Origin: an uncultured Halanaerobiales bacterium
GTDB taxonomy: Bacteria > Bacillota > Halanaerobiia > B1SED10-174
NCBI GenBank assembly: GCA_964568715.1
Contig: CAZMQU010000004.1
Coordinates: 11,089 to 75,088, forward strand
Direction of reading: 5' to 3'
Length of the DNA stretch: 64,000 nt
Numbering within the stretch: the first letter of the stretch is position 1; each line of letters starts with the position of its first letter. Under the pieces are notes generated by a model. That model had not been told where the DNA came from and ran no database searches. It saw only the letters and a list, made by a program, of their open reading frames with translations. Below are positions 4,137 through 63,820 of this stretch, one piece after another. The translations under genes and the position numbers were made by a program.

Positions 4137-4397
4137 TTAAAATGTACATGATTTCGAAATTCCAAAATTGAAAACTTTAAAAAATCATGAATTTAGCCGA
4201 TAAATAGGGCAAAAGAGACTAAATCAACTTAATCGAAAAGGATTTCCTTGTCTTTCCGGGGAAATTAGTACTTGGTCAAGGAATTTTTAGGACAGAAAAA
4301 GAAGATTTATAAAGACATTGCTTGTGGGGATCATTACAGCAAAAAACGAATCATTTAAAGTGCAATCCAATGAAAATTATGAAAGGAGGGAGAAAAG

Positions 4398-11596: not shown

Positions 11597-12050
11597 TTGG
11601 TTCCCTTAAATTTGACCATGAATTTGTTTACAAGGAAATGTGAATTCCTTCATACTGGAAATATTCAACACGGGGAGGCGATTATCCCTCTAGCCTGAGA
11701 AAAACGCCGGATAAAGAAAAGATTTTCCTCCAGCCGGGACAATGAATTTGATAGAAATTTTTTAAAAATCACCCCGGGGGTGATTACTTTGGGTAACGGA
11801 TTTAGTATGATTGTTTTATATACGGAGAGTCTGTCAAATGTTGTATTTCCCAGAATTTCTTACGGCGACCTGTTAGCTCCGGCCTGGGAATGCTTATATA
11901 TTAACTAGATCTATTTCTCAAGACTATCGGCAATGACTGCTCCTTGTTCGTTTCATAGATCCAGACCCTTAATTAGTTTTGGTTTCCCAATTTTCAACAG
12001 GGGGTGACGGGTAAAAAGGTTGATATGGGTATTAAAAAGGAGGGTGCAAA

Positions 12051-13192
12051 TTGAAAAGAAAACTTTTGATCTGGGCTGTGCTGTTGTTGCTGGTACTGGT
12101 GGTGGGCTGCGATGGGAAAAAGGGTGGTTTGAGTGTCAAAGTATATGAAGGGGAAACCAGTGAATTTTTAAAGGTCAACTTGAAACTTACAATCGGCGGG
12201 AAAACAGCTTCTACTTCTTCGGGCCAATATACTTTTACACAAGTGCCTGTCGGTACCCATACCCTAACAGTCGAAGCTGCAGGCTATTTCGAAAAAAATC
12301 AAGAGGTTACCATCGAAGCGGGCAAGGTTGTGGACTGTGAGGTACGGTTGGTAAAAAACTATATCGCAGAGGTCAAGGTACCCGGAGGTATAAACCCCAT
12401 TGGCCTAAAAGATAACTATCTGATTACTCCAATTGATTCTTTCTTTATAGCCAAGTATGAAATAAGCTGGCAGGCCTGGAAAGAAGTCTATGATTGGGCC
12501 ACGGATGATGCGCGGCTGGGTAGAAAATATTATTTTGAAAATGAAGGCAAAATGGGTGAAGTCTTTTCGGGGGGGGTACCCCCATTACCACGGATGAAAA
12601 CCACCCGGTCACACATATTTCCTGGTATGATGCCATCGTTTGGTGCAATGCCCTGACCGAGTACTATAATCATTTCCAGGGTGAAAACTTGGAATGCGTT
12701 TATAAATCAAGTGGCGGATCGGTTCACCGTAGTTCCCAGGCAGCTTTTGTGCCACAGCTGGAGACGGTGAATCCCGACCCTGATGCCAAGGGTTTTCGTT
12801 TACCGTCTTCTAATGAGTGGGAACGGGCCGCCCGCTACAGGGACGGATCGAACTGGCTTGATGGCAACCATGCCAGCGGTGATCCTACCAAGCCATGCTG
12901 GACGGAGAGCGGCCAGGGCCTTTCGACCCTTTATGGCGACTATGCATGGCATGAGGGTAACAGCGAAGGTCATACTCACCCGGTTGGCAAAAAGAAAGAA
13001 AATGACTTGGGGATTTACGATATGAGCGGTAACGTTTCGGAATGGTGCTTTGATAAAGATGGTGACGATCGGGTTACCCATGGCGGGAGCGGCAAACTGG
13101 GCAACAGATGGCTGCAGATTGGTTTGCAAATTTCATGCGCTCCGGAATACACTTACAACGATTTGGGTTTGCGTCCCGTCAGGACCAAGTAG
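12051..13192 (+). pseudogene. FGE-sulfatase (SUMF1-like) domain lipoprotein, disrupted by a -1 frameshift in a G8 homopolymer (either phase-variable or a pseudogene)
   Basis: ORF 12051..12656 (frame 0) carries a signal peptide with a lipobox (VVGCDG) and a beta-sandwich domain. ORF 12689..13192 (frame 2) carries the FGE-domain motifs (GFRLPSSNEWERAARY, GIYDMSGNVSEWCF). Read in frame 2 from 12569, the sequence gives GGGTPITTDENHPVTHISWYDAIVWCNALTEYYN, which matches the paralogs. The junction is the G8 run at 12569-12576 followed by a C5 run. Confidence 0.7.
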
Positions 13193-13466: not shown

Positions 13467-14618
13467 ATGAGCAGAAAGATTTTGGTTGTCGGTATGGCTT
13501 TGTTGATGCTCGCCTTGGTGGGCTGCGGGGGGAAAAAGGGCGTCTTGGAGGGGACTATTGTTAAGGAGGGCACTTCCGATTTAATTACAGATGAAGTGCT
13601 TGTCGAAGTGGCCGGCGAATCGATGACGACAGAAGACGGGAAATACGCCTTTGCCGGTATTTCCGCAGGGGTACACGTCCTTGAAGCCGTAGCTGACGGG
13701 TACAAGCCTTACAGCAGGCAAGTTATCGTCGAAGCAGGCAAAACGACGATACACAAGGTGGAGTTGACAGAAATTTTACCCCCTCTGGCCATTGAGGAAG
13801 CGGAAGTTCCGGCCACCCTTGCATTTCCGATGGAAACGGATGATTCAAAGACAAATATGCAACCATTTGACGATTTTTATATGGCCAAATACCAGGTAAC
13901 CTACGAATTGTGGAAGAAGGTCTATGATTGGGCAACAGATGAAGCAAGGGGGACAGGAAAATATACCTTTGCCAACGAAGGATTGAAGGGCAACGACGGT
14001 GACGCCGAAAAGACCGATCAACATCCCGTAACGAGCATCAATTGGCGGGATGCCGTGGTTTGGTGCAATGCTTTAACCGAGTATTACAATGGGGCAAACG
14101 ATGCGAACTTGGCTTGTGTTTACGTCGATACCAACAATAGAGTTATTCGCAAATCCGAGACCGGCACCCTTGCACCCACCATACAAGTTGCTGAAGGAGC
14201 CAAGGGCTTTCGCCTACCCACCAGCGTGGAATGGGAATTCGCCGCCCGCTACCGGGGCGATGATCCGACCAATACGGTAGAGGGTTTCTCAGATCCCTAT
14301 TTCACCAAGGGGGATTCCGCCAGCGGCGCCACCGCTAACTGGCAAGACAAAGAGGTCACCAAGCTGGTTGCCTGGTTTACAGAAAACAGCGGCGACTCTA
14401 CCCATGAGGTGGGCGGCCTGGCTGCGAACGCTTTGGGCATTTATGATATGAGCGGGAATGTCCGGGAATTCTGTTATACAAGCCGAGGGGATGGAAGGGC
14501 CCTTCGTAACGGTGGCTTCCGGGATATTGCCACTTTTCTGCAAATAGGTTACGAGCGGGAGCTTCGGGAGGATACAGTTTCGGAAGTTATCGGATTTAGG
14601 GTTGTGAGGACCAAATAA
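13467..14618 (+). CDS. Lipoprotein with an N-terminal CarboxypepD_reg/Ig-like beta-sandwich and a C-terminal FGE-sulfatase (formylglycine-generating-enzyme-like, DUF323) domain
   Basis: The signal peptide and lipobox are LALVGCGG. FGE-family motifs are present: HPVTSINWRDAVVWCNALTEYYNG, GFRLPTSVEWEFAARYRG and GIYDMSGNVREFCYT. It lacks the paired catalytic cysteines of true FGE. Confidence 0.8.
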   Translation: MSRKILVVGMALLMLALVGCGGKKGVLEGTIVKEGTSDLITDEVLVEVAGESMTTEDGKYAFAGISAGVHVLEAVADGYKPYSRQVIVEAGKTTIHKVELTEILPPLAIEEAEVPATLAFPMETDDSKTNMQPFDDFYMAKYQVTYELWKKVYDWATDEARGTGKYTFANEGLKGNDGDAEKTDQHPVTSINWRDAVVWCNALTEYYNGANDANLACVYVDTNNRVIRKSETGTLAPTIQVAEGAKGFRLPTSVEWEFAARYRGDDPTNTVEGFSDPYFTKGDSASGATANWQDKEVTKLVAWFTENSGDSTHEVGGLAANALGIYDMSGNVREFCYTSRGDGRALRNGGFRDIATFLQIGYERELREDTVSEVIGFRVVRTK

Positions 14619-14715: not shown

Positions 14716-14955
14716 TCAGATGAAATTTTCGTCTTTTCCTTTGATCATTTTGATATAAACCATCAATTTCTTGCGGTAATTCACATTCAGTTGTTGATAT
14801 TTCCGTTTTTTGTGATTTATGGACAAAAAAAGGGCATCAGCAGCTTCCTTGGCCTTGTAACCTCGGCAATAATGATCGAAGACACTTCGCTCTGCCGGTG
14901 TCAAGTTTTTAATATTGTCAGCAAATCTTTGCAAGAGTTGCTTGGCTTGCTGCAA
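14716..14955 (-). CDS. Stand-alone LuxR/FixJ-type HTH fragment (79 aa), probably a remnant of a duplicated membrane LuxR regulator
   Basis: LTPAERSVFDHYCRGYKAKEAADALFLSIN...YRKKLMVYIKMIKGK aligns to the C-terminal HTH of the 18697..20316 protein (LSPAEENVFNLYLKGHSAKEAAEILYLSINTIKTHNKRIYRKLNVSSRKELMILIKMM). It has a 4-aa gap in the recognition helix. No sensor domain lies upstream. Confidence 0.5.
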   Translation of the reverse strand: MQQAKQLLQRFADNIKNLTPAERSVFDHYCRGYKAKEAADALFLSINHKKRKYQQLNVNYRKKLMVYIKMIKGKDENFI

Positions 14956-15382: not shown

Positions 15383-16252
15383 ATGCGGCAATATTTATCG
15401 CTTTTGCTATTGATTATTTGCCTGAACATATTTTCCGGTTGTAAAGCAAACGGGGTTTCCACAGTGAATTATAATAAGATCGAGGATAGGGCCCGGGTAG
15501 AAAGAGAAATTCTCCCGAAAATGCAAGTCAGCCGGGTAGAAGGGGCCAATATTAATAAGGGTGGGGGAAGCTATGCACAAAAAATACCGACAATAGCCGG
15601 CGGTTATAATGCTTATAAAGATGCCCGGGATGCTTTTGAGCGTTATGCTTTGGATATGAGTAATTTTTGTGGGACTGTTGCCTTAAATATAAGCTTGGTA
15701 AGTGCCTTTGAAGGAGAGATTTATTTTTATCTTTTGCCTTTGGATTTCATCGGCTTGTCAATAGATAGCTTGGGGTATTATGATGAATCAATGGAAGCAA
15801 CTTGGATCAAGATGGCTTTTGCCGGTGATGGTAAGATGATTATCGGCTCCGATGGTAGCTATCTTCTAACCGGTACTTCCGGTGAGGGTAAGTCGATGAT
15901 TTTGCAAATTGAATACCGACCTGAAGAAGATGAATTACGCTTGGAAGTGCAAGAAGACGGTAGACTGGCTTTACTTTTTGAATATATAAAAAACAAAGAA
16001 GGTTATGCCGCCCAGTATTACTTTAAGGCAGCCACCGGCTATTATGAAGATGCTCCAAAAGCAATGTGTGTCTATAGGACAATTTTCAACGGCTTGAACG
16101 GTTCCTGTGCCCGCTATGACGGTGTCGAATCAAAGCCGCAATCCTTGCTTGGCTCTGCTCCTTTAGGTGACGAATTTTTTGCCGGAGCAACCCACTGGTT
16201 TACTCTCACCAATGGAAGGTTTACAGGACTGCTAAATGGTAAGGCTTTTTAG
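15383..16252 (+). CDS. Hypothetical lipoprotein
   Basis: The signal peptide and lipobox are LNIFSGCKANG. It has a good RBS (AGGAGGTG, then 8 nt, then ATG). I recognised no conserved domain. Confidence 0.6.
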   Translation: MRQYLSLLLLIICLNIFSGCKANGVSTVNYNKIEDRARVEREILPKMQVSRVEGANINKGGGSYAQKIPTIAGGYNAYKDARDAFERYALDMSNFCGTVALNISLVSAFEGEIYFYLLPLDFIGLSIDSLGYYDESMEATWIKMAFAGDGKMIIGSDGSYLLTGTSGEGKSMILQIEYRPEEDELRLEVQEDGRLALLFEYIKNKEGYAAQYYFKAATGYYEDAPKAMCVYRTIFNGLNGSCARYDGVESKPQSLLGSAPLGDEFFAGATHWFTLTNGRFTGLLNGKAF

Positions 16253-16565: not shown

Positions 16566-18332
16566 ATGAAAAAACAAATCAAACAATTGAGGTGGAAAAT
16601 AATGTTGAAAAGGGCATTTCTTTTTGTTTTAATTGGCGTTCTGGTTCTTACTACTGTTTTTATCGGATGTGAAGGTAAGAAAACAGGTCAATTAAAGGGT
16701 AAAATCTACGATGAAGCAACAGAAGAATTGGTTAAAGAAAGTATCACCATTACCCTAGGAGACAAGAACTTGCTTGTAGAGGATGGGGATTATATATTTA
16801 CCGACATAACCCCCGGTGAAAAGAGCCTGAAAGTTTTGGCTCCCGGTTATGAAGAATATAGTGCGACGGTGGTCATTGAAGCCGGTAAGGTAATGACTCA
16901 CGATGCTTATTTGATAAAAGAAGAATTGCCGATCGTAAAGGGTGCGCTGCAGGGTAAAATTATTGATAAAGAGCTCGGTATTTTAGTTACCGGAGCTGTT
17001 ACCGTAAAACTTGACGGCCAAGCTTCTACCTTCACCGATGGAGAATATATTTTTACCGATTTGGAGCCTGGTGAAAAAGAATTGCAAGTCAGCATACCCG
17101 CTTACAAAGTGTATTCTGCTAGAGTCGAAATTGAATCGGGAGAGACTACTGAGCATGATGTTTTACTGGAGCAAGCATTAAGAACTATTAAAGGAAAGAT
17201 TTTTGACAAAGCAAACGGAAATCTAATTACTCAAAGAGCAGACATTACGATAGAGTATGCCGATGGTGATTATGAAAGATCATTGACCGTTTATGATGGT
17301 GAATATTGTTTCGATGATTTGCCCTATTTTAAAGCAAATGCATACTGGCACATATCTTGCGCTACGGAAGACTATAAAACCCATTATACATTGCTAATCT
17401 TTTCCGGCAGTAATACCACCATTATTGAGAAAGATTTTTACCTTGATACAATAACCTTATCGCCGCTAAACCTTAATTTGATACCTATAACGGTAATTCC
17501 AGCGGAAGGGTTTCCCAAAGGAAACGATGATCTTTCCACGGGCCAGGTACCTGAACCCGATCTGTATTACCTGGGTAAATATCAAATTACTTATGGTTTG
17601 TGGCAGACTGTCTACAACTGGGCTACTGAGGAAGAACGCGGCGAAAATCGATACTATTTTCAAAATCCTGGGACAGGAACAGGTATTTTTCATCCGGTTA
17701 CGGGTATCAGTTGGCGGGATGCCATTGTCTGGTGCAATGCCTTAAGCGATTACTATCGGGAATCAAACGAGGATTACGAAAGCTATCCGGTTTATTTAGA
17801 TTCGGATAACTATGAACCTATTCGGGATTCCAGGGACAGTAACGGCGAAATCTGCGATAATGCCATATGCGCTTGGGAGGATGTTTACGGGTTTCGTCTA
17901 CCCACTTCAGAAGAATTTGAGGCAGCAGCCCGCTACATTGGGCCCGATAAGCCCACCGAAGGTGCAATTGGGGAAGAAGCTATCTTTAAAAACGATATTT
18001 ATTGGACGCCTCATAACTTTGCCAGCGGTGCTTTGGATGAAATAGATAACGAAGAGGCAACTACTGCCGTAGCCTGGTATTCACAAAACAGTGGTGATCA
18101 AATTCATCCTGTTGGCGATTTGTTGCCCAATGCTTTGGGGTTATACGACATGAGCGGCAATGTTTGGGAATATTGTTTTGCTTCAGGTGATGTTGGCAGA
18201 TGTGTTTTACGGGGTGGCCCTTTCAACGGGATGCGGGTAGATGTCGGTTATTACATTAGTGCTCCTTTTGATGATGGCTCCAATAATTTTGGCTTCCGTT
18301 TGGCCAGAAGCAGATATGAATTTAACTATTAA
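16566..18332 (+). CDS. Large lipoprotein with three tandem beta-sandwich repeats and a C-terminal FGE-sulfatase domain
   Basis: Lipobox VFIGCEG. There are three internal repeats of about 85 aa (GKIYDEATEEL...GDYIFTDITPGEKSLKVLAPGYEEYSATVVIEAGKVMTHDAYL; GKIIDKELGIL...GEYIFTDLEPGEKELQVSIPAYKVYSARVEIESGETTEHDVLL; GKIFDKANGNL...). FGE motifs are HPVTGISWRDAIVWCNALSDYY, GFRLPTSEEFEAAARY and GLYDMSGNVWEYCF. Confidence 0.8.
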   Translation: MKKQIKQLRWKIMLKRAFLFVLIGVLVLTTVFIGCEGKKTGQLKGKIYDEATEELVKESITITLGDKNLLVEDGDYIFTDITPGEKSLKVLAPGYEEYSATVVIEAGKVMTHDAYLIKEELPIVKGALQGKIIDKELGILVTGAVTVKLDGQASTFTDGEYIFTDLEPGEKELQVSIPAYKVYSARVEIESGETTEHDVLLEQALRTIKGKIFDKANGNLITQRADITIEYADGDYERSLTVYDGEYCFDDLPYFKANAYWHISCATEDYKTHYTLLIFSGSNTTIIEKDFYLDTITLSPLNLNLIPITVIPAEGFPKGNDDLSTGQVPEPDLYYLGKYQITYGLWQTVYNWATEEERGENRYYFQNPGTGTGIFHPVTGISWRDAIVWCNALSDYYRESNEDYESYPVYLDSDNYEPIRDSRDSNGEICDNAICAWEDVYGFRLPTSEEFEAAARYIGPDKPTEGAIGEEAIFKNDIYWTPHNFASGALDEIDNEEATTAVAWYSQNSGDQIHPVGDLLPNALGLYDMSGNVWEYCFASGDVGRCVLRGGPFNGMRVDVGYYISAPFDDGSNNFGFRLARSRYEFNY

Positions 18333-18696: not shown

Positions 18697-20316
18697 TTAT
18701 AAGGATTGTTCGTGTTTTTCCTGCATCATTTTTATTAGAATCATCAACTCTTTGCGGGAGCTAACATTTAGTTTTCGGTAGATCCTTTTATTGTGAGTTT
18801 TAATTGTATTGATGGACAGATAAAGGATTTCGGCGGCTTCCTTGGCGCTATGCCCTTTTAAATAAAGATTGAAGACATTTTCTTCCGCAGGTGACAGGGT
18901 TTTGATATTGTTGATAAAGTTTTGGAGAAGAGTAGAGTCGCCGGCCAGAATTTCTCTTATAGTAAGTCTTTGCTTTGTCTTTTCCCGGCTTGCCCAAAAG
19001 TTAACCAGTTCATCGATTTCTTGAATGTTTGTCTTGGTCTGTTCTATTGACGGGTCGCCCTTCATCCTTTCAAAGGTATCGACTAAAGGCTTAATTAGGC
19101 GACGGCTTAAAAATACTCCGGCGCTGATGCTGAGGGCAAATAGAAATAAAAGCAAAAGTAATATCGGTTTGTTTTGTTGCATAATCAGAGGGCCAAGATT
19201 ATTTTGCGGAATCAGCAAAGCCAAGGCCCATTGGGTATCGGCAAAGGCCGCATCTTTTGGATAAAGATTGATGGTTTTTTGGATGCCGTAGTATGTAGAA
19301 TGGTCTGCAAGGGCATATTGCAGCAAGCCCTTTTTGCTTTTTTGAAAGGTTAAAAAGCCTCCCTTTTCAGAGGGAACGGTAGTATAGTTAGCTGCAAAAA
19401 GGGCCCCTGAAACATCAAGATTAGCCTCTGCCAAAGGAGCAAGCATGGCGAAGGTGTGGGTATAGTAGCTACCGGCAGGAGTATGTTGCAATTTAAAGAG
19501 CATTTCACTTATCTCGAAGCCGCAAACCCCCATGATAATGCCGTCAGGGCTGATAAGGGGGATGGTGAGGAGTATGGCTTTTTCACAAGCTTCGCCTAAA
19601 GAAGTAGCCGGATTCCAATAGTAAAGTCGTGACAAGGGAAGCTTGCTGTGTTTGGCTTCATTGAGCGTAAAAGAAAAAAAGTCATCGGGGGCAATTGAAA
19701 ATTCCATTTGCCATTGGGGGAGCAAATCCAATCCTTTTTTGCGGGCTATTGTGACCGGGCCACGCAGATAGCGGATAGTAGGGAAAACAACATTGACAAT
19801 ATTTGGCTCCATATTTTTCAAAAAAATGCCGGCTCGGGATCGGTTGGCTGTGGGCAAAGCAGGGTTGATGGTAGCATCCAATACGAGAAATGCGCCGCTA
19901 CATTTGCTTTTTCCCAGAGCCGCTATCAATGAATCCAGTGAATTGGTCAAGAGAAGTTCGAGTTGTTCGGGATAATTTTGTAAATCGGCAGGGGCAATAT
20001 CCAGCCGGCGGAGGTCTGCTATCAGATTTTGAGCTAAAGTTTGAGCTAAGATGACTCCTTCAACGGCTAAAACATTAAATTCGCGGGAGATTCGCGGTGC
20101 TGTATGCTCCAATTCATTATGTAAAAAGACGCAAAATTCTCGCTGACCGCCGGAAAAGACGCCGGTAGCATATAAAATTATAAGTAGTGCAAACATAATT
20201 GCCAGCAAGAATAATAAAAAGAAAGTCAAAGAATGCCTTCGCAGGCTAGGATCTTTTTCCCAGAGGGACCGGATATTCGGTATTATATTTTTCAACACTA
20301 ACCTAAATTTGGTCAC
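18697..20316 (-). CDS. Membrane-tethered one-component transcriptional regulator: TM, an extracytoplasmic sensor domain of about 320 aa, a second TM, and a C-terminal LuxR-type HTH
   Basis: TM1 is LTFFLLFLLAIMFALLIILYATGVF and TM2 is ILLLLLFLFALSISAGVFL. The C-terminal HTH is LSPAEENVFNLYLKGHSAKEAAEILYLSINTIKTHNKRI. It has no kinase or receiver domains. Confidence 0.75.
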   Translation of the reverse strand: MTKFRLVLKNIIPNIRSLWEKDPSLRRHSLTFFLLFLLAIMFALLIILYATGVFSGGQREFCVFLHNELEHTAPRISREFNVLAVEGVILAQTLAQNLIADLRRLDIAPADLQNYPEQLELLLTNSLDSLIAALGKSKCSGAFLVLDATINPALPTANRSRAGIFLKNMEPNIVNVVFPTIRYLRGPVTIARKKGLDLLPQWQMEFSIAPDDFFSFTLNEAKHSKLPLSRLYYWNPATSLGEACEKAILLTIPLISPDGIIMGVCGFEISEMLFKLQHTPAGSYYTHTFAMLAPLAEANLDVSGALFAANYTTVPSEKGGFLTFQKSKKGLLQYALADHSTYYGIQKTINLYPKDAAFADTQWALALLIPQNNLGPLIMQQNKPILLLLLFLFALSISAGVFLSRRLIKPLVDTFERMKGDPSIEQTKTNIQEIDELVNFWASREKTKQRLTIREILAGDSTLLQNFINNIKTLSPAEENVFNLYLKGHSAKEAAEILYLSINTIKTHNKRIYRKLNVSSRKELMILIKMMQEKHEQSL

Positions 20317-22138: not shown

Positions 22139-22750
22139 TTAGTCATCGAAAGCTTCGTTGACTTTCCATTCTTTCCACACATTACCTACCAGGTTAGGAT
22201 TGGGCTTAAGAGTATTTTTACCCGGTTTCCAGCCGGAAGGTGTAGCTTCGGTACCTTTCGATTTGCGGACCAGTTGGAAGGCTTGAATTTGTCTGATGGC
22301 TTCGGAAATATTTCTACCGACAGGCGGGGTCAAAACTTCAAAAGCCTGGATGATTCCTTCGGGATCGATAATGAACCTGCCCCGTGTTTCTGTACCGCTG
22401 TCTTCATCATAGATACCATACATTTTTCCTATGCTGCCATCTTGGTCGGAAAGCATGGGAAAGGGTATATCTTTGCCGATCATCTTGGAAAGTTCATGCT
22501 CGTTCCAAATTTTGTGAACATAAATGCTGTCTACGCTGACAGTTAAAACTTCCACGCCTAAATCTTGAAATTCAGAATATTTTTCAGCAACTGCTGAGAC
22601 TTCAGTAGCTCAGACAAAGGTGAAGTCCCCCGGATAAAAACATAGTAATACCCATTTGCCTAGATATTCCGACAGCTCGATGTTCATAAATTTCCCTTTG
22701 TGAAAGGCGGGTGCGGTAAAATCGGGTGCTTTGGAGCCAACTTTAACCAT
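22139..22750 (-). CDS. prxU: Selenocysteine-containing peroxiredoxin (PrxU-like, 1-Sec type). The in-frame UGA (plus coordinates 22610-22612) replaces the peroxidatic Cys.
   Basis: ORFs 22610..22858 and 22139..22555 are in the same frame and separated only by TGA. The joined translation reads [38 protein letters not shown]. The canonical AhpC/Prx motif is FYPLDFTFVCPTE. The resolving-Cys region reads [12 protein letters not shown], so that Cys is absent. The likely start is the ATG at 22750 ([14 protein letters not shown]), which has AAAGGAGGAAAT 7 nt upstream. Confidence 0.8.
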
Positions 22751-29933: not shown

Positions 29934-31376
29934 ATGGGTGGTCAAAATTGTTCTTTGAAAAATAAATACAGGGTAAAAGGAATAGTAACCAAGGGTACCA
30001 AGAAAAATGATTTTTGGGGTACAAGGGCTAAAGGTTGGGGTTTTGAACACATTGATTTATGGCAATTGGAAAACATTAAAGTAGAGGTGTATCGTGCTGA
30101 AGATGTAAGTTTCCGGGGCGAGGAGCTGCAATTTAAGGAGGGAGCTGAAGCGGTTGCTTCCCTTCTTGTATCTGATCCCAATCCGGCCGGGAAAAATTAT
30201 TATGCTCCTTTTGAATTTCTTTTGAAGCGGGGCGATTATTATCTGATAATCCGGAAAGCCCCCGGCCTTTACGCAACGGTTTATAAGTCTTTCACCGTGG
30301 CGGATGGGGATACCGACGTGGGTCCCTTGCCCATGCGCAAAGAAAAGATCGAAGGGGAATTTGTCCGCAGCTTTTTCAGTTGCCGGCCCGATGGCTCAGT
30401 CGATTCGGCCAATAACAGGATTACCGTTAAGATACTTAATGCCAAAGTTGCTCCCGGGGGAGCCAATCGGAACACGGTATTGGTGGACGGTATGCCGCCG
30501 GGATTATTTGTGGAAGATTATATTGCCGATACAGAAGAAAATTCCATAAGTTTGGTTTTTGGGGGCCAAAGGCAGGATGAACTTATTGCCGGTCTTGTTT
30601 TGACAGTTACCATTATGGAAAAGGCTGTAATTAATGAGTTCTTTCCCGGTTGTTATTCCTATGATACTTCCGATAGGTTAAACGGTATACGATTGGTTCA
30701 AGAGGTATCTCCCCAAGATGTTGCCCTAGGTAAGGCATCGTATGCTCAAGCCTTTACATTTTTGCCCGGCGAAGCATATCCGGTGGATGACGCCAAGGAA
30801 TCTATCCGAAAGATTACCGGGGTTGATCCCAAGATTTTGGAGATTCTCTACCGGGAAAGTTTACAGGAGGATGGCAGTTGCAAGTATTGTTTGTTTTTGG
30901 TCAATACCAACGTTACGAGTACTTACATGCAAAGGCATTCCAAAGGAATAACTCCGCGAGGTTGGGAGTGGACGGGGCTTACCTGGGATGACATACCCGG
31001 GTCGGGAGGTAAAAACATAATCGTGCGGATAGGCCGGAGCGATTACGGCCATGGGCACGGCTCTACCAATGTGGAGCTCCACGAACTGGCCCACAATATC
31101 GATGCTTCCGTTTTCAAGGGAATTTCCAAGACAAAAGAATGGAATGACCTGCGGGAGGAAGAATCAACGCAACTTTTCCCCATGGACATTAACTATATGA
31201 CAGCCTATACCGAGGAATTTTTTGCTGAATCTTTTATGCTATACTATTTAAACGAAGAAAGCAAAAGATGGCTTCGCAAGAAAGGCCCCAAGACCTACGA
31301 AGCCATTGAAGTGGGCTTGCAAGAAAAATTAAAAAAATTCTACGGTAAGGATCCCAAGTATTCACATCTTTTTTAA
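29934..31376 (+). CDS. Protein with a C-terminal anthrax-lethal-factor-like (ATLF / Pro-Pro-endopeptidase-like, M34-type) zinc metallopeptidase domain
   Basis: The HExxH motif is VELHELAHNID. A downstream Glu is present (YTEEFFAESF). The preceding segment GWEWTGLTWDDIPGSGGKNIIVRIGRSDYGHGHGSTN is typical of ATLF-fold peptidases. There is no obvious N-terminal signal peptide. Confidence 0.55.
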   Translation: MGGQNCSLKNKYRVKGIVTKGTKKNDFWGTRAKGWGFEHIDLWQLENIKVEVYRAEDVSFRGEELQFKEGAEAVASLLVSDPNPAGKNYYAPFEFLLKRGDYYLIIRKAPGLYATVYKSFTVADGDTDVGPLPMRKEKIEGEFVRSFFSCRPDGSVDSANNRITVKILNAKVAPGGANRNTVLVDGMPPGLFVEDYIADTEENSISLVFGGQRQDELIAGLVLTVTIMEKAVINEFFPGCYSYDTSDRLNGIRLVQEVSPQDVALGKASYAQAFTFLPGEAYPVDDAKESIRKITGVDPKILEILYRESLQEDGSCKYCLFLVNTNVTSTYMQRHSKGITPRGWEWTGLTWDDIPGSGGKNIIVRIGRSDYGHGHGSTNVELHELAHNIDASVFKGISKTKEWNDLREEESTQLFPMDINYMTAYTEEFFAESFMLYYLNEESKRWLRKKGPKTYEAIEVGLQEKLKKFYGKDPKYSHLF

Positions 31377-43634: not shown

Positions 43635-44894
43635 ATGGAAGAAATGAGAATTCTACTGGATAAGGCGGGGGAGATATCTCCTATTAGTGCGAAAGAGTAT
43701 GCCGATGTCGGTGGCTATGAAGGCTTAAAAAAAGCTTTGCAAGCACCTGAAAAAATTGTTGATGTCATTAAGGCCTCCGGTGTCCGTGGTCGTGGTGGAG
43801 CAGGTTTCCCGGCCGGATTGAAGTTGTCTTTTACGGCCAATACGCCGGCTGATCAAAAGTACATCGTGTGCAACGCTGATGAGGGCGAACCCGGAACCAA
43901 TAAAGACCGGGTAATAATGGAGCAAGTACCCCACCGCCTTTTGGAAGGTATGGCCATTGCGGGTTTGGCGGTAGGCGCCAGCAAAGGTTACATTTACTTA
44001 CGAGCGGAGTATCCTTATGTAGCGACTATCTTAGCGGATGCCCTTGCCGATGCCCGTGCCAATGGTTATTTGGGTGAAAATATTTTAAACAGTGGTTTTG
44101 ATTTTGATGTAGAGCTTTTTATCGGTGCAGGGGCTTATGTTTGTGGTGAAGAAACTGCTTTGTTGAATTCAATGGAAGGCAAAAGGGGAGAATCAAGGTT
44201 TAAGCCCCCATACCCCGGTGTTGAAGGTCTATGGGGTAAGCCAACGGTGGTCAATAATGTGGAGACCCTAACCAACTTTCCCGTGATTATGGTAAAAGGG
44301 GCTGAGTGGTATAGAAAAATCGGAACTGAAACATGCCCCGGTACAAAATTGTTTACCTTAAGCGGTAACATCTCTAATCCCGGTGTCTATGAGTTCCCCG
44401 TAGGTACGACGATTCGCAGCCTTTTTGAAGAGGTTGGCGGCGGTTGCCCGAATGGTAAAAAGCTTTATGCTGTCCAGACCGGAGGAGCTTCGGGTAATAT
44501 AATTCCTGCTTCCTTATTGGATACCCCCATGGATGTCGATTGTTGTGCTGAAGTTGGTGCCACCTTTGGTGCGGGGGACTTGATGTTCATCGATGAAGAC
44601 AATTGCTTGTTGGATGTATTGGAGAATTTGATGGAGTTTTTTGCCCATGAGTCTTGTGGTAAATGCACTCCCTGCCGGGAAGGTAATGTCCAGCTATTGG
44701 GGCTTATTAGGAAATTTAAAGCCGGAACCGCCGAGGAAGGCGATTTGGACTTGATGGTTGAGTTGGCCAATTTTATGGTAGAGGGAAGCCTCTGCGGTTT
44801 AGGTCAAGCTTCGCCGAACCCAATTTTATCGGCAGTCCGTTTTTTCCCGGCAATATTCACATTAAAAAACGAATCTAAAGGGAGGGTTAGCTAA
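43635..44894 (+). CDS. NADH-binding 51-kDa-subunit-like flavoprotein (NuoF/HoxF/FdsB family; FMN, NAD(H), 4Fe-4S)
   Basis: Glycine-rich NADH/FMN motifs GRGGAGFPAG and GAGAYVCGEETALLNSMEG. The 4Fe-4S motif is ESCGKCTPCREG. Confidence 0.9.
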   Translation: MEEMRILLDKAGEISPISAKEYADVGGYEGLKKALQAPEKIVDVIKASGVRGRGGAGFPAGLKLSFTANTPADQKYIVCNADEGEPGTNKDRVIMEQVPHRLLEGMAIAGLAVGASKGYIYLRAEYPYVATILADALADARANGYLGENILNSGFDFDVELFIGAGAYVCGEETALLNSMEGKRGESRFKPPYPGVEGLWGKPTVVNNVETLTNFPVIMVKGAEWYRKIGTETCPGTKLFTLSGNISNPGVYEFPVGTTIRSLFEEVGGGCPNGKKLYAVQTGGASGNIIPASLLDTPMDVDCCAEVGATFGAGDLMFIDEDNCLLDVLENLMEFFAHESCGKCTPCREGNVQLLGLIRKFKAGTAEEGDLDLMVELANFMVEGSLCGLGQASPNPILSAVRFFPAIFTLKNESKGRVS

Positions 44895-47569
44895 TGATAA
44901 AGGTTGTTATTGACGGTCAGCCTCTGGAGGTAGAAAAAGGTACTACAATTCTTGAAGCCTGCCAAAAGCTGGGTATTGAAATCCCAACCCTTTGCCACTA
45001 CAACCACCTTGCTCCGGAGGGGTCTTGCCGGATTTGCGTTGTAGAAGTTAAAGGAACAAAAGATTTGCAGGTTTCTTGTGCCACTCCTTGTGCAGAGGGC
45101 ATGGAAGTGACTACTATGAACGAAAGAATTTACACTTTTAGGAAAATGATCATTGAGTTGCTTTTGGCCAACCATGATACAGATTGTTTTTCCTGCCCTG
45201 CCGTAGGTGAGTGTGAATTATATCGGTATGCCGTAGAGTATGGTGTTGAGGAAACAAGGTTTCCCAGGACAAAAGAAATTGAACCCAAAGACCTTTCCAA
45301 CGAATTTTTTGAATATGATCCTTCCAAATGTATTTTGTGTCGTAGGTGCGTACGTGTATGCAATGAATTACAAAGCAACCGTACCCTCAGCCTAAAGAAC
45401 AGGGGCGTAGACACAGCTGTTAGTATACCATTTGATGAGCTTTTTGTTGACAGTAATTGCGTATCTTGTGGAAACTGCGTTTCAGTTTGTCCTACAGGTG
45501 CACTTACAACTAAAGCCAGTAAAAAATATCGCTCTTGGGAGGTAACCAAGACCAGAACGACTTGTCCATACTGTGGTGTTGGCTGCCAATTGGACTTGCT
45601 TGTAAAAGACGACAAGGTTGTTGGTGTTGAACCGGCTGACGGACCGGCAAACCATGGTCTTCTTTGCGTCAAGGGAAAATTTGCTTATGATTTTATAAAT
45701 CATCCTGATCGCCTGACGACTCCTTTGATAAGGAAGGACGGAGTTTTGACCCCGGCAAGCTGGGATGAGGCACTCGATTATGCAGTGAAAGGGATTAAAA
45801 AGGTAAGGGAGGAGAGCGGTCCCGATGCAATCGCCGGTTTTTCTTCCTCCCGGGCAACCAACGAGGATAATTATACTTTTATGAAGATGATGAGGGCGGC
45901 AATCGGTACCAACAATGTCGATAACTGTGCCCGTGTCTGACACGCTCCTACAGTGGCTGGTCTAGCCACAACATTAGGTAGCGGAGCAATGACAAACTCC
46001 ATTTCCGAGTTGGTCGATGCTGAAGTAATCTTTATTATCGGTTCCAATCCCACCGAGGCACATCCGGTTATCGGTGCTCAGATTAGACAGGCCCGCAATC
46101 GTGGTGCCAAGCTGATTGTAATCGATCCAAGGGTAATTGACTTAGCTGAAGAGGCAGAAATCCATCTGCGTATTAAACCGGGAACCAACGTTGCCTTCTT
46201 AAACGGCCTCATGAATGTTATCATTGAAAAAGGCCTTTTAGATAAAGAATACGTTGAAAACAAAACCGAGGGATTTGAAGAGTTAAAAGAAACAGTAAAA
46301 GATTATACCCCCGAAAGCGTGGCGGAAATATGTGGGATAAATCCTGATGACCTGGAAAGGGTTGCCAGATTGTATGCGCCGGCTGAAAGGGCGCCCATTG
46401 TATACTGCCTGGGTGTGACCGAGCATTCAACAGGAACTACCGGTGTTATGTCGGTAGCCAACTTGGCCCTTCTTTGCGGTAAAGTTGGTAAGTATGCTTG
46501 TGGAGTTAATCCCTTGCGGGGACAAAATAATGTGCAAGGTGCTTGTGACATGGGATGTATGCCTTCCGATTATTCCGGTTACCAGAAGGTTGCCAACCCC
46601 GAAGCCAGGGCCAAGTTTGAAAAACTATGGGGAACGAAATTGCCCTCCAATCCCGGCTTAACAAGTACCGATGCTATGAATGCAGCAGCTAAGGGCGATG
46701 TACGTTGCTTGTATATATTTGGAGAAAACCCCATGGTCAGTGATCCCAACCTTAGCAATGTCCAAAAAGCTTTAACCAAGGCTGACTTTGTGATAGTACA
46801 AGATATTTTCTTGACGGAAACAGCAGAATTTGCCGATGTAGTCTTGCCTGCAACAAGCTATGCCGAAAAAGAGGGAACTTTCACAAACAGTGAGAGAAGG
46901 CTCCAGAGGGTTCGGCCTGCTGTTAGCCCAAGGGGTGAGAGTCGTGACGATTGGGCGATTTTCTCCGAAATAATGCATCGTCTTGGTTATGACAACAAAT
47001 TCACCTCTGCCAAAGAAGTATTGGATGAAATTGCTGAGGTAACACCTTCTTATGGTGGCTATAGTTTCGAGCGATTGGAACGGGAGCAGCCCCAATGGCC
47101 TTGCCCAACTCCGGACCATCCCGGAACACCTATTCTTCATGTTGGTAAGTTTGCCAGAGGTGAGCGGGCAATTTTCAAACCGTCTCCCTATGTGCCTTCT
47201 GCGGAACTACCTGATGAAGAGTATCCATTGATATTTTCCACCGGAAGGCTCTTGTATCAATACCATACCACTACCATGACGGGTAGAAGTGAAGGTATTG
47301 CCAATTTGGCCGGCAAACCTTTCGTCGAAATCAACCCGGCCGATGCATCTAAACAGGATATTGTTGATGGTGGAAGGGTAAAGATTGCCTCCCGCCGTGG
47401 AGAAATAGAAGTTGATGCCCGTGTTACGGAGCGGGTTCCTGAAGGCGTTCTTTATATGCCTTTCCACTGGGCAGAAGGGGCGGCCAACTGGTTGACCAGT
47501 GAAGCCTTGTGTCCCATTGCCAAAACACCCGAGTATAAAGTTTGTGCTGCCAAAGTACAAAGGGCTTAA
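44894..47569 (+). CDS. fdhA: Formate dehydrogenase catalytic subunit with an N-terminal NuoG-like 2Fe-2S/4Fe-4S extension. It is a selenoprotein, with in-frame UGA-Sec at 45938-45940.
   Basis: ORFs 44894..45940 and 45953..47569 share a frame and are separated only by TGA. The joined sequence reads NCARV-U-HAPTVAGL. The E. coli FdhH Sec motif is CARVUHGPSV. The N-terminus has the 2Fe-2S motif CHYNHLAPEGSCRIC and two CxxCxxCxxxCP ferredoxin motifs. A long molybdopterin-oxidoreductase body follows. Confidence 0.9.
45953..45969 (+). promoter_or_regulatory. Candidate SECIS hairpin 13 nt downstream of the fdhA UGA (GUGGCU-GGUCU-AGCCAC)
   Basis: A 6-bp stem with a GGU-containing apical loop, positioned as bacterial SECIS elements are. 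The full element is probably longer. Confidence 0.45.
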
Positions 47570-56519: not shown

Positions 56520-57155
56520 TTGACACGAATATATGTTGTTGATGATCATCCTTTTGTCCGAGAAGGGCTGAAGACATTTCTGGGCACCCAGGAAGGGATA
56601 ACTGTAGTAGGCGAATCGGATACGGCACAAAAGGCCCTGCCTGAAATTGAAAAATTGCAGCCGGATATCGTTATAGTCGATCTGCACCTGCCCGGCATGA
56701 GTGGCATTGAGTTGACCCGTAAAATCAGCTTGTTCTCCACCGGTATTGCCGTTATCATCCTCTCGAGCTTTTCTGAAGAGGATGAGGTTATCGCAGCTAT
56801 TGAGGCAGGAGCTTTGAGTTATATTCTGAAGGATTCCCCGCCGGAAAAATTGGTTGAAGCAATTCGGGCTGCAAAGCGGAAGGAACCGGTCTTGCATCCC
56901 CGCATTGCCAAGAAGCTCATGGAAAAAATGCGCCAACCTGAACCAGTGCTTATAACTGAGCAACTGACCATGAAAGAAAAAGAAGTGATGGCCTTATTGA
57001 CAGAAGGTTTTTCCAATAAAGAAATAGCCCAAAAGCTCTATGTATCCGAGTCCACCGTCAAAAGCCATGTTAGCAGCATTTTAAGAAAGCTGGAGGTTCA
57101 AGACAGAACCCAGGCAGTAATAAAAGTGATGGAAGAAAGGTTGTTGGATAAATGA
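56520..57155 (+). CDS. NarL/FixJ-family response regulator
   Basis: REC motifs RIYVVDDHPFVREGL...DIVIVDLHLPGMSG. The LuxR HTH is LTMKEKEVMALLTEGFSNKEIAQKLYVSESTVKSHVSSILRKL. The start was set at the TTG at 56520, which has GGGGGAGG 9 nt upstream. The ORF-track ATG at 56448 would add an implausible 24-aa extension. Confidence 0.8.
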   Translation: MTRIYVVDDHPFVREGLKTFLGTQEGITVVGESDTAQKALPEIEKLQPDIVIVDLHLPGMSGIELTRKISLFSTGIAVIILSSFSEEDEVIAAIEAGALSYILKDSPPEKLVEAIRAAKRKEPVLHPRIAKKLMEKMRQPEPVLITEQLTMKEKEVMALLTEGFSNKEIAQKLYVSESTVKSHVSSILRKLEVQDRTQAVIKVMEERLLDK

Positions 57156-57883
57156 AAGCCAGGTTGTTAAGTGGAAAGGAGATTCTCAAAGACTCTTGTG
57201 GGGGGGCTTTATTCGGCTTGGGAATCAGTTTATTCTTTTTAGTAGTTACCCAGGGTATCTATGCTCCTTTTTGGGCTTGGTTGGCCAGCCTTTTTTTTGG
57301 TCTCGTCCTGGGATTTTTTATAACCATAGCCATTGAAAATATCAATAATTTGTTTGTCGCTGTATTTCCGTATCATTCGGTCGGCTTTTTGTTTCGGTTT
57401 ATCTTGTCTTTCAGCGTTGGGTTTGGTTTGTTTTGGATTTTAGCCCAAGCCTTTTGGCCTTTCAACTTCACAGGCCGCTCACTGCTGGCTTTCAGCTTGG
57501 CGACAGGCTTTTTTTCCGCCCTGGTCGGTCTTTTTTTTGCCTATTCCTGGGGGGCAAAAGAAAGGTTGCGCTTGGAAGAGGAGAACAAGAAACTGGCGGT
57601 TCCGGAAGAACGCAACCGAATTGCCCTTCAGCTGCACGATTCAATAGTTCAAAGTCTGTTTGGTTTGAATTTACATTTAAATACCTTGGTTTACCTCCAT
57701 GAACATCGGCCGGAGGAGGTGCAGGGGGTTATCTGTCAACTACAAAATAAGGTCGAAGAAATCCATAAAGAACTTAAGCTGATGATCCATGAATTAAAGC
57801 CCGCGGTTTTTATTGGCACTGATTTTCAAAAGCCGGTGGAATCCGTCGCCCCAAAGACCGAAGGGTGGGAGGATAACCGGTGA
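57152..57883 (+). CDS. Membrane protein with a HisKA_3 dimerisation/phosphoacceptor (DHp) domain but no ATPase domain (truncated kinase paralog)
   Basis: About 4 TM segments followed by EERNRIALQLHDSIVQSLFGLNLHL. It ends about 60 aa later with no HATPase_c motifs. It overlaps the next kinase gene by 4 nt. Confidence 0.6.
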   Translation: MKARLLSGKEILKDSCGGALFGLGISLFFLVVTQGIYAPFWAWLASLFFGLVLGFFITIAIENINNLFVAVFPYHSVGFLFRFILSFSVGFGLFWILAQAFWPFNFTGRSLLAFSLATGFFSALVGLFFAYSWGAKERLRLEEENKKLAVPEERNRIALQLHDSIVQSLFGLNLHLNTLVYLHEHRPEEVQGVICQLQNKVEEIHKELKLMIHELKPAVFIGTDFQKPVESVAPKTEGWEDNR

Positions 57884-58938
57884 AGCACTTGTTGCAAGAC
57901 GTTTTAAAAGAAAGTTGCAAAGGCGGTTTAATAGGGGTAGGCGTCACTATGGCAATTATCTTTATCGGCTCCGGAATTTGTTTTGCACCGACCCTGCTTT
58001 TATCTATCTTTATATATGGTTTTGGGATCGGCTTTTTTCTGACCGCCAGCAACCTTTTCGTCCAATCGGCCTTGGATCATTATTTCCCATCTTTGTTGGG
58101 CTGGAAAATAATCGGACCTATTTTGTGTTTTTTTGTCAGCGTACCCTTATTTTACTTGTATAACAGGCTGGTCATCCGTTTAACATCCTTGTTTGCCATG
58201 GATGACAAAAGCTTGTTATTATTTAGTTTGGGAGCAGGAATTGTTTCCATTATGGTTGGTTTTTACTACATTTATTCGCAAGAAAAAGAAGGTCGCATCT
58301 ACCAGGAAAGAGAGTTCCAAAGGTTGGCAATTCTGAAGGAACGCAATCGGATTGCCCAGGAATTACATGATTCCGTTTCACAAAATTTTTACGGCATCAG
58401 TCTCTATTTAAGTACATTGGAGCGAGTACAGAATACCGACAAAGAAGCTTTCTACAGCTCCCTGCAAATTTTGCAGGAGATGATAGCCGAGACACAAATT
58501 GAAATGGGACTGTTGATTTATGAATTGGCACCTCAGGCGGAGAAGAAAGGTTTTTTTCAGGCATTGGATAAGCTGACCGACCTATATAGCACCCGCTACA
58601 AATTAACCATAGAAACTGTTTTTCACGGTGAAGAGGAAAGGCTTAAAGATGGAACCCGCAATGCTTTATATCGGGTAAGCCAAGAAGCATTGAACAATGT
58701 GATAAAACACTCCAAAGCCGACCGGGCACGACTGAGTTTGCAGGTATTGCCAAGCGGTTCCAGCATTTTATCAATTGAGGATGACGGTATCGGTTTTGAA
58801 TTGGCAGACTTGAAGAAAACGAAGCAGTACGGGATTAGGGGTATGCGGGAGCGACTGGAGGGGATTGGTGGGCATTTGATTATTGAAACGGCTGAAGGGC
58901 AGGGAACTGTTATCAGGGCAATCTTTCCTCTTGATTAG
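57880..58938 (+). CDS. Sensor histidine kinase, HisKA_3 type (complete: TM, DHp and HATPase_c)
   Basis: DHp motif ERNRIAQELHDSVSQNFYG. HATPase_c motifs IEDDGIGFE and GIRGMRERLEGIGG. It is a paralog of the upstream DHp-only ORF. Confidence 0.85.
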   Translation: MKHLLQDVLKESCKGGLIGVGVTMAIIFIGSGICFAPTLLLSIFIYGFGIGFFLTASNLFVQSALDHYFPSLLGWKIIGPILCFFVSVPLFYLYNRLVIRLTSLFAMDDKSLLLFSLGAGIVSIMVGFYYIYSQEKEGRIYQEREFQRLAILKERNRIAQELHDSVSQNFYGISLYLSTLERVQNTDKEAFYSSLQILQEMIAETQIEMGLLIYELAPQAEKKGFFQALDKLTDLYSTRYKLTIETVFHGEEERLKDGTRNALYRVSQEALNNVIKHSKADRARLSLQVLPSGSSILSIEDDGIGFELADLKKTKQYGIRGMRERLEGIGGHLIIETAEGQGTVIRAIFPLD

Positions 58939-62052: not shown

Positions 62053-62835
62053 TTGATCTTGAGTAAATTTACCGGGAAGGCTTGTTTTGTGGCTTTCCTA
62101 TTGATGGTGATTATACTGACCGGCTTATCGGTTAAAGCCTTGGAAGCTGAGGAGTTGTTGAAAGACATCTATAGACGCCAAGGTTTTGGGAAAGGATCCT
62201 ATATATTGGAGATACAGGTCGATTTACAGCAAAAAAACGAAGTGCAGACCTCTCATGTACGAGTCTATTTGCATGAGTCGAATAAGCAGCTGGTTACTTT
62301 TCTAAGCCCCCAGAGGATGACCGGCCAGTCATTTCTGGTAAGCGACAATAACACCTGGATGCACCAAGAGGGCCTGAACAGACCCTTGCGAATATCGCCC
62401 CAACAAAAACTGTTCGGTGAGGCGGGCATTGCCGAGACGATAGGTATCGATTACCTGAATGATTACAGGATAACGGAAAGGGCTGAAACCCCTACTGAAC
62501 ACATATTGGATTTGGAAGCAACAGATGTAAAGACTGCCTATCAAAGGGCACGTTTATGGATAGACAAAGAAGAAGTTAAAATTGAAAAAGTCGTATTGAT
62601 GGCCATCAATGGTCTACCGCTCAAAGAGCTGATCTTCAGCGATTATTGTCTTTTAAACGATCATGAAGTAGCCAGGATTGATATACGAAATCTTCTTTCT
62701 GAAAAGGATCAGAATACCGTAATAAACTACCTGTCCATCGAAGAAAGCCGGTTGCCGGCGGAAATATTCGATCCTCTGTTAATGGGAAAATCGCAATTCT
62801 TATTAAAAAAAGGAGAAAAGGGCGATGAAAGCTGA
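62053..62835 (+). CDS. LolA-like / lipoprotein-sorting-protein-like secreted protein, commonly paired with MacB-type ABC systems
   Basis: A signal peptide followed by a beta-rich domain of about 230 aa. Its position after the ATPase-FtsX pair fits the usual pairing. The call is by pattern only. Confidence 0.45.
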   Translation: MILSKFTGKACFVAFLLMVIILTGLSVKALEAEELLKDIYRRQGFGKGSYILEIQVDLQQKNEVQTSHVRVYLHESNKQLVTFLSPQRMTGQSFLVSDNNTWMHQEGLNRPLRISPQQKLFGEAGIAETIGIDYLNDYRITERAETPTEHILDLEATDVKTAYQRARLWIDKEEVKIEKVVLMAINGLPLKELIFSDYCLLNDHEVARIDIRNLLSEKDQNTVINYLSIEESRLPAEIFDPLLMGKSQFLLKKGEKGDES

Positions 62836-63820
62836 TAAAAGTCTTTTCACTCACTGCTTGGCCTTCTGTCTGCTTTTGATAGCCTTGCTTCTGATATCTA
62901 TATTTTTTACTGAGAAAGAGGTTCTGGCAAAAGAAATGCTGTGTAAATATAGGATTTTCAGCGAAATATATTACAAAAACGTAAAAGAAAATTTCCCCCC
63001 GGAAATGAGGAGGGCCTTGGAAATCGGTACCGGAACCGGATTGCAAATGATTCTTGCCGGAAGGGTTGAAGATTACCGGTATGACATACAGTTGACCGGC
63101 CATTTTAACGATTTTACTTTGACCGTGGATAGATTGACCTTATGCGGGTTCAGCCGGGAGTCATTTTGGGAGTTGGGTAAAAAGGATTGGAGTTGGGGTA
63201 AAGGTTTGGTGTTAGCAGCAAATTATCCCCTTGAAGAAGGTATCCCCTACTGGGGGCTGGAAAATACGGCTTTCCTGCTTCCTTATAGCTTGATAGTTGG
63301 TGGCGCACTGGAAGACATACCACGAGGTGCCGCTTGGATCAGGCTAGCCAGAATTTATCCGAGTTTCGACTGGGAGACCTGCCTGGCTTGCCTCTTGGTA
63401 GATAATGCTTATCATTGGGAGGGGGGGGTGGATTTATCCTGGGATCTTTTAAACGGTCTTAGCCTGCACGGTGCATATAAAAGAGAGTTTTCTCAAAAGA
63501 AAAACAAATACTTGCTGGGCGGAACCTATATGGAAGATGATAAGGTGTTGTCTTTTGAATATTATTACGATGACAATCACTACCTCTATGGAGGTCTCAG
63601 CAAGGAGCCGGGCCTGTTTGGCAGTTGGCAGTGGGGGATTAAAGAGGTTTTGCACTTAAAAGACGGTGGCTTGGTAAGCATTTTTAATGTCCAATATGTA
63701 AAGAATGATGTTCTCATCCCCGAGCTTATTGTTACCAATTATACCGGTAAAGACTACAGCTTGGTGGGGCAAAATCCTTTGAACTGGGAATGTACCTTGC
63801 GATTAAAAGGTCATTTCTAA
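62825..63820 (+). CDS. Hypothetical membrane-anchored or secreted protein
   Basis: The N-terminal TM or signal segment is HCLAFCLLLIALLLISIFF. It contains an in-frame G8 tract at 63421-63428. No domain was recognised. Confidence 0.45.
   Translation: MKADKSLFTHCLAFCLLLIALLLISIFFTEKEVLAKEMLCKYRIFSEIYYKNVKENFPPEMRRALEIGTGTGLQMILAGRVEDYRYDIQLTGHFNDFTLTVDRLTLCGFSRESFWELGKKDWSWGKGLVLAANYPLEEGIPYWGLENTAFLLPYSLIVGGALEDIPRGAAWIRLARIYPSFDWETCLACLLVDNAYHWEGGVDLSWDLLNGLSLHGAYKREFSQKKNKYLLGGTYMEDDKVLSFEYYYDDNHYLYGGLSKEPGLFGSWQWGIKEVLHLKDGGLVSIFNVQYVKNDVLIPELIVTNYTGKDYSLVGQNPLNWECTLRLKGHF

Follow-up and report, generated by a model that had tools for sequence, protein, structure and literature searches.

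A lipoprotein gene divided at a G tract

The window, the 64-kb stretch of DNA analyzed here as a whole, contains a lipoprotein gene that is divided between two reading frames and accompanied by two intact paralogues (Table 1). The frame-0 ORF begins 6 nt downstream of a Shine-Dalgarno-like sequence and comprises the signal peptide and lipobox, a CarboxypepD_reg β-sandwich, and the first ~45 residues of an FGE domain. The lipobox (MKRKLLIWAVLLLLVLVVGC/DG, containing LVVGC), predicted by inspection of the sequence, places Cys20 at 12108-12110. At a run of eight guanines the FGE frame is lost; 27 out-of-frame codons follow, whose product includes VPPLPR, and a stop codon ends the ORF at 12654-12656. 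Frame 2 reads GGGTPITTDENHPVTHISWYDAIVWCNALTEYYN... from inside the G run and encodes the remainder of the FGE domain, which shows no protein-level difference from residues 175-379 of P0123, the intact allele described below. The ORF and frame readings thus bear out the division described in the sequence-only reading, as well as its statement that the frame-2 stretch aligns to the paralogues, which it does at 14022-14101 and 17691-17770.

Table 1. Coordinates of the divided gene, its tract, and its paralogues in the window.
Feature	Position	Strand	Description
Shine-Dalgarno-like sequence	12037..12044	+	AAGGAGGG; read from sequence
Frame-0 ORF, 201 aa	12051..12656	+	start TTG; product ends ...GEVFSGGVPPLPRMKTTRSHIFPGMMPSFGAMP, then stop
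Divergent haplotype patch, 264 nt	12395..12658	+	brackets the tract; 9 SNPs relative to G6 assemblies
G8 homopolymer, frameshift site	12569..12576	+	within codons 173-175 of the lipoprotein gene
Perfect 12-nt palindrome	12572..12583	.	GGGGGTACCCCC; 3' part of G run, TA, and C5
Frame-2 continuation	12575..13192	+	remainder of FGE-sulfatase domain; natural stop 13190-13192
Paralogue 2, intact, 383 aa	13467..14618	+	lipoprotein; CarboxypepD_reg and FGE-sulfatase (Pfam)
Paralogue 3, intact	16566..18332	+	588-aa ORF, called as 576 aa from 16602

The tract lies in the context ...GTCTTTTC GGGGGGGG TA CCCCC ATTACC..., so that the G8 followed by C5 that had been read from the sequence is indeed present, with TA separating the two runs (C5 at 12579-12583). 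DNA spanning the G5/C5 palindrome (12555-12600) is not predicted to fold better than its shuffles (z -0.10). We rebuilt the gene in silico with tracts of G5 to G11 and compared the lengths of the products. Full-length proteins resulted from G6 (379 aa) and G9 (380 aa) and from no other length, while G7 and G8 gave truncated products of 181 and 201 amino acids, respectively. The window thus has two guanines more than G6, or one fewer than G9. The sequence-only reading had expected one fewer G to restore a lipoprotein of about 380 amino acids; G7 instead yields the 181-aa truncation. The tract is an in-frame repeat, and changes in its length toggle the gene between a full-length (G6, G9) and a truncated (G7, G8) product. 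Across the tract, the intact product reads SGG(G)TPITTDENHPVTHISWYDAIVWCNALTEYYNHFQGENLECVYK, and the G9 version contains SGGGTPI.

The intact allele ends in a C-type-lectin-like domain that matches the Pfam family FGE-sulfatase (PF03781) over residues 128-376 with 112.5 bits (gathering cut-off 23.3); its CarboxypepD_reg match scores 38.3 (cut-off 32.3). Its closest solved structures by phmmer are 5aoh (E = 3.9e-17) and Treponema denticola TvpA (2y3c; E = 1.4e-14). No NCBIfam model, and no equivalog, attains its cut-off on this allele. The C-terminal segment, HGGSGKLGNRWLQIGLQISCAPEY, has one cysteine only, whereas true FGEs have a catalytic pair, which we take, from human FGE, to be placed as CxxxxC after an RGGS motif. 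Neither of the marks of a catalytic formylglycine-generating enzyme, the active-site cysteine pair and an equivalog-level score, was found. The single cysteine in this segment makes a lectin-fold binding lipoprotein more likely than an enzyme.

When paralogues and homologues are aligned, the tract is placed in an unconserved loop with many gaps that directly precedes the invariant motif HPVT..W.DA.VWCNA. Paralogues 2 and 3 have no G tract at this site of the alignment. According to Pfam, paralogue 3 has two CarboxypepD_reg domains in addition to FGE-sulfatase. A 79-aa ORF (14716-14955, minus strand) located between paralogue 2 and a 289-aa gene is similar to the LuxR/GerE helix-turn-helix. It resembles the C-terminus of a 539-aa regulator (18697-20316), with a 70% nucleotide repeat against 18808-18924. 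Judged by this resemblance, the ORF is probably the remnant of a duplicated regulator, in which case the lipoprotein cluster would have grown by duplication.

Tract length among assemblies of the same species

Conspecific assemblies were reached through exact-product look-ups of neighboring genes. Three of their contigs cover the tract: L002 (Logan SRR24100343), L083 (NCBI GCA_040436515.1), and L085 (Logan SRR22941227). Further conspecific contigs are L001 (Logan SRR22941227) and L087 and L168 (GCA_040436515.1). The short contigs L084 and L086 are identical to the window and end before the tract. DNA identical to the window is present in samples SRR8925798 and SRR28883302, in contigs that end short of the tract. 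Identity to the window is 99.7-99.9% for the conspecific assemblies that show any difference, and 99.7-99.8% for L002, L083, and L085.

The tract, as read from consensus contigs, is G6 in all three of the other covering assemblies, as against G8 in the window. The gene is intact in these assemblies: all 379 amino acids are encoded in L002 and L083, and in L085 the frame stays open past the tract as far as the contig extends. Tract length is thus polymorphic across populations, with two states seen, G6 and G8, 2 nt apart. A 90%-identity cluster of the gene, drawn from ~15 billion proteins, contains only the 379-aa allele and the two fragments of the window, and no G7 or G9 allele was found either in these proteins or in the conspecific assemblies. 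The comparison with related genomes that the sequence-only reading had proposed therefore reveals a difference in length, but one limited to two states. Exact-product look-ups of the 201-aa, 167-aa, and 660-aa ORFs returned no match, and a DNA pattern across the tract with a variable gap had no matches in the JGI metagenome collection. Protein-based scans of the GTDB representative genomes and of the JGI metagenome collection found no relative above 44% identity; the species is therefore missing from both.

A syntenic orthologue occurs in a sister species (contig L169), flanked by the same Oxidored_FMN gene and paralogue 2. It has 55% protein identity and reads AAAATGGGCGGTAAATGGGATGAA at the site of the tract, where the G run is absent. 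The NuoF-like protein of the organism shares 74-77% identity with proteins from 'Firmicutes bacterium ADurb.Bin182' and from a Limnochordia MAG.

The Logan assembly of SRR22941227 breaks within the gene at 12940-12962, ~370 nt 3' of the tract, where L085 ends and L001 starts with an overlap of 23 nt. The assembly graph may branch here owing to strain variation or paralogue similarity in the sample.

One explanation of the two-frame arrangement is recoding, in which the G8 allele would yield the full-length protein by programmed -1 ribosomal frameshifting or transcriptional slippage. A heptamer of the form X_XXY_YYZ (G_GGG_GGG) stands in frame 0 at 12569-12575, and a -1 slip there would produce 380 amino acids; this match is an automatic result of the G8 run and is formal only. 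The 84 nt 3' of the tract (12577-12660) fold no better than shuffles (z -0.41), and programmed frameshifting was rejected because no stimulatory RNA structure was found in this stretch. The arrangement is also unconserved, the gene being single-frame in the three conspecific assemblies and in the sister species. We consider recoding highly improbable.

Homopolymer controls and a divergent haplotype

The sequence-only reading had named an assembly or sequencing error as the trivial alternative. The consensus would then be wrong and the gene intact, the real tract of the strain being in frame, either as G9 with a 1-nt under-call or as G6. Under-calling by one nucleotide is the commonest homopolymer error. 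G8 occurs in a single assembly as against G6 in three, the tract belongs to a G/C palindrome, and the site has the longest G-run length in the window. Both of the indel differences from the other assemblies are differences in homopolymer length, and the window is the longer each time.

As controls, we compared every homopolymer of at least 6 nt in the window that is covered by another assembly (n = 100). Two differ in length and 98 agree. Those that differ are the G8 tract and an intergenic run at 4341-4346, located 5' of a TPR-GAF-GGDEF gene at 4398, which is A6 in the window and A5 in L083. The invariant controls include two T9 runs, one A9, several A8 and T8, three G7 (at 9438, 16268, and 57200), and the other G8. 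This second G8 (63421-63428) is read in frame (W-E-G-G-V-D) within a 331-aa ORF (62825-63820) that has no Pfam match and follows a LolA-like/TP_0789-like gene and an ABC/FtsX pair; GCA_040436515.1 (L168) has the same run. Such agreement, which extends to T9, A9, and the other G8, shows that the window assembly is not prone to homopolymer errors, and a general explanation by such errors was rejected on this ground.

No other frameshifted gene was found in the 64 kb, and the two remaining split genes are interrupted by selenocysteine TGA codons. The first encodes a peroxiredoxin (AhpC-TSA; 22139-22750, minus strand) with an in-frame TGA (22612-22610) at the position of the peroxidatic cysteine. 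Gene calling in GCA_040436515.1 likewise splits it into two ORFs (82 and 138 aa), and it is probably a selenocysteine-containing PrxU-type gene rather than a pseudogene. The second is a formate dehydrogenase alpha-like gene (44894-47569, plus strand), in which the TGA at 45938-45940 lies inside NCARV-TGA-HAPTVAGL, a classic selenocysteine site; genes for FdhD, MobA, and MobB are nearby. Broken genes as a mark of poor assembly were accordingly rejected, as these are selenoprotein genes. Taken with the agreement of the controls, this indicates an assembly of high quality, to which a generic account by homopolymer errors does not apply.

Two other observations were made in the window. Two adjacent HisKA_3 histidine-kinase genes (57152-58938), the first of which (243 aa) has no HATPase_c match, are called identically in GCA_040436515.1 and are therefore not an assembly error. 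A 480-aa protein (29934-31376) matches ATLF, the N/C-terminal domain of anthrax toxin lethal factor (E = 2e-41), which is unexpected in an apparently environmental anaerobe.

The tract also lies within a patch of sequence divergence, in which the same nine SNPs separate the window from all three G6 assemblies. Outside this patch, L083 departs from the window at 6 positions over ~10.6 kb; a simple Poisson estimate from this rate predicts ~0.15 SNPs in 264 nt, and the probability of nine is ~1e-13. The SNPs of the patch affect eight codons, five synonymously and three nonsynonymously, and the two changes 3' of the tract leave the protein read in the FGE frame unaltered. The C-terminal third of the gene is identical in all four assemblies, and apart from the tract the window allele carries no other lesion. 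The bias toward synonymous differences, which are silent in the FGE frame 3' of the tract, indicates that the region diverged as a functional gene of which the frameshift is the sole lesion. By this pattern of substitution, the patch is a real and functionally constrained divergent allele, for example a short recombination import, and neither noise from sequencing nor the outcome of long decay as a pseudogene. A real allelic difference at the tract is unsurprising at a site within such a haplotype. The haplotype and the homopolymer controls weaken the case for an artefact, which we regard as unlikely while still allowing it some weight; the true sequence at the tract could be G9 or G6.

Comparable SNP patches occur elsewhere in the window, at 15941-15973 (nine changes in 33 nt, in the 289-aa lipoprotein-like gene) and at 58292-58380 (five in 89 nt, in a histidine-kinase gene), and several SNPs are found in the third FGE-lipoprotein gene (16975-18103). 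The strong clustering of these SNPs suggests that short stretches were imported by recombination or that several nucleotides changed in one event. Paralogues 2 and 3 were rejected as gene-conversion donors of the SNP patch around the tract, as they share just 63-76% identity, and this over the conserved motif.

Treponema denticola TvpA and other variable lipoproteins of the FGE-sulfatase/C-type-lectin fold that are DGR targets resemble the protein described here in being lipoproteins of the FGE-sulfatase fold with clustered paralogues. In contrast to these, the variation here consists of a frameshift and a mid-gene SNP patch rather than of adenine-directed mutagenesis. None of the 57 ORFs of at least 150 amino acids in the window has a reverse-transcriptase Pfam match, and no template/variable repeat pair was found in the 64 kb. 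A DGR origin of the variation was rejected on these grounds, along with the lack of adenine specificity of the SNPs and the identity of the C-terminus in the four assemblies.

Possible phase variation and probable strain-level loss of function

The sequence-only reading had proposed a slipped-strand phase-variation switch. As a poly-G contingency locus, the tract would undergo high-frequency slippage that reversibly toggles the lipoprotein ON (G6/G9) and OFF (G7/G8), with a possible benefit such as escape from phage or from other ligands of the lectin-like domain. The G8 tract within a predicted lipoprotein ORF passes the cut-off of PhasomeIt for poly-G/C tracts (at least 7; PMC6321876), and in-silico screens for phase variation would flag the window allele as a tract of this length inside a surface-protein ORF. 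Populations of one species differ in its length, ON and OFF states both being present, and polymorphism between strains is accepted as support for phase variation (PMC1891110). The frameshift is, moreover, the only lesion in the gene, and the loop at the tract tolerates an extra glycine. SNP patches concentrate in the lipoprotein cluster, which would fit with diversifying pressure.

The common allele, however, is G6, carried by three of the four assemblies, which lies below the mutable range and outside the cut-off that G8 passes. No more than two states were seen, with 2 nt between them and no G7 or G9 in ~15 billion proteins. The tract is missing from the syntenic orthologue of the sister species and from the same site in the paralogues, and neither the other G8 nor any G7 run varies from one assembly to another. 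Nor are such runs enriched: the window has two G8/C8 runs, while shuffles that preserve dinucleotides average 5.5, and at least two occur in 96 of 100 of them. With neither over-representation nor conservation in the orthologue or paralogues, we see no sign of selection maintaining the tract. Of the proposed switch, then, the length polymorphism stands, while the commonness of G6, the two states, the unconserved tract, and the lack of enrichment speak against it, and we judge a contingency locus to be improbable. In-silico evidence on tracts is silent on rate, and mutability forms a continuum (PMC6321876, PMC1891110). The readings of the G8 allele as an ordinary mutation and as a switch differ only in rate.

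Comparison with known systems leads in the same two directions. As in the poly-G/C phase variation of Campylobacter jejuni, Neisseria, and Bordetella, a G run lies in a predicted surface-protein ORF, its length toggles a full-length and a truncated product, and that length differs among close populations. Unlike in C. jejuni, where the modal poly-G length is 9 (PMC3401435), the common allele here is G6, and screens use at least 7 (PMC6321876). The locus also departs from known poly-G/C loci in its two states, unenriched tracts, invariant other G7 and G8 runs, and missing tract in the nearest orthologue. The organism is an uncultured member of the Bacillota whose nearest named relatives, on NuoF, are one anaerobic-digester and one Limnochordia MAG, and not a host-adapted pathogen. 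Pseudogenes formed by homopolymer frameshifts, such as those in Bordetella (PMC1891110), share with the G8 allele a sole inactivating indel in a short homopolymer, in a nonessential gene that has paralogues and is polymorphic among strains. They differ in that the lesion here lies within a locally divergent, recombinant-looking patch.

Our best reading is that G8 is an ordinary strain-level loss-of-function polymorphism in a redundant, presumably surface-exposed protein gene, and not an evolved high-frequency switch. With moderate confidence, we attribute it to a recent, strain-specific slipped-strand frameshift that would have inactivated one of three paralogous FGE-fold lipoprotein genes and would be reversible in principle. 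In the common allele, G6 encodes Ser-Gly-Gly, within a loop that is rich in indels and has little conservation. The length of the run would have changed when slipped strands mispaired at the homopolymer as the DNA was replicated, either from G6 to G8, through two successive +1 changes or one uncommon +2 change, or by a single -1 step, real or artefactual, from an in-frame G9 that the divergent haplotype patch may have carried. In reporter assays in C. jejuni, nearly all poly-G changes are of one unit, the exceptions being a few -2 deletions in long tracts (PMC3401435), and a 2-nt difference would therefore be unusual for one slippage event. In the G8 lineage, translation would leave the FGE frame at the tract and run through the 27 wrong codons to the stop at 12654-12656. 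The allele would be null, as its 201-aa product has lost nearly all of the FGE domain. The lack of other damage in the gene suggests that the event was recent, and a step from G8 to G9 would give back a 380-aa protein. A counterpoint to this reading is the presence of G8 in one assembly only.

A true poly-G switch in a free-living, uncultured member of the Bacillota, in which the divergent haplotype carries a hypermutable G8/G9 that toggles one lectin-fold lipoprotein, perhaps in defense against phage or predators, appears improbable. If such a switch is true, SSR phase variation would reach far past pathogens adapted to a host, and would take in a protein fold for which DGRs are otherwise the source of diversity. 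As an ordinary mutation, the finding would be another instance of a well-known type of event. For annotation, a single frameshifted allele of the 379-aa protein, intact in every other respect, describes the locus better than two genes do. If the G8 allele is real, it would represent a clean, strain-level functional presence or absence of one lectin-fold lipoprotein paralogue in an uncultured anaerobe, and variation in this gene cluster would come about through short recombination-like patches together with homopolymer slippage.
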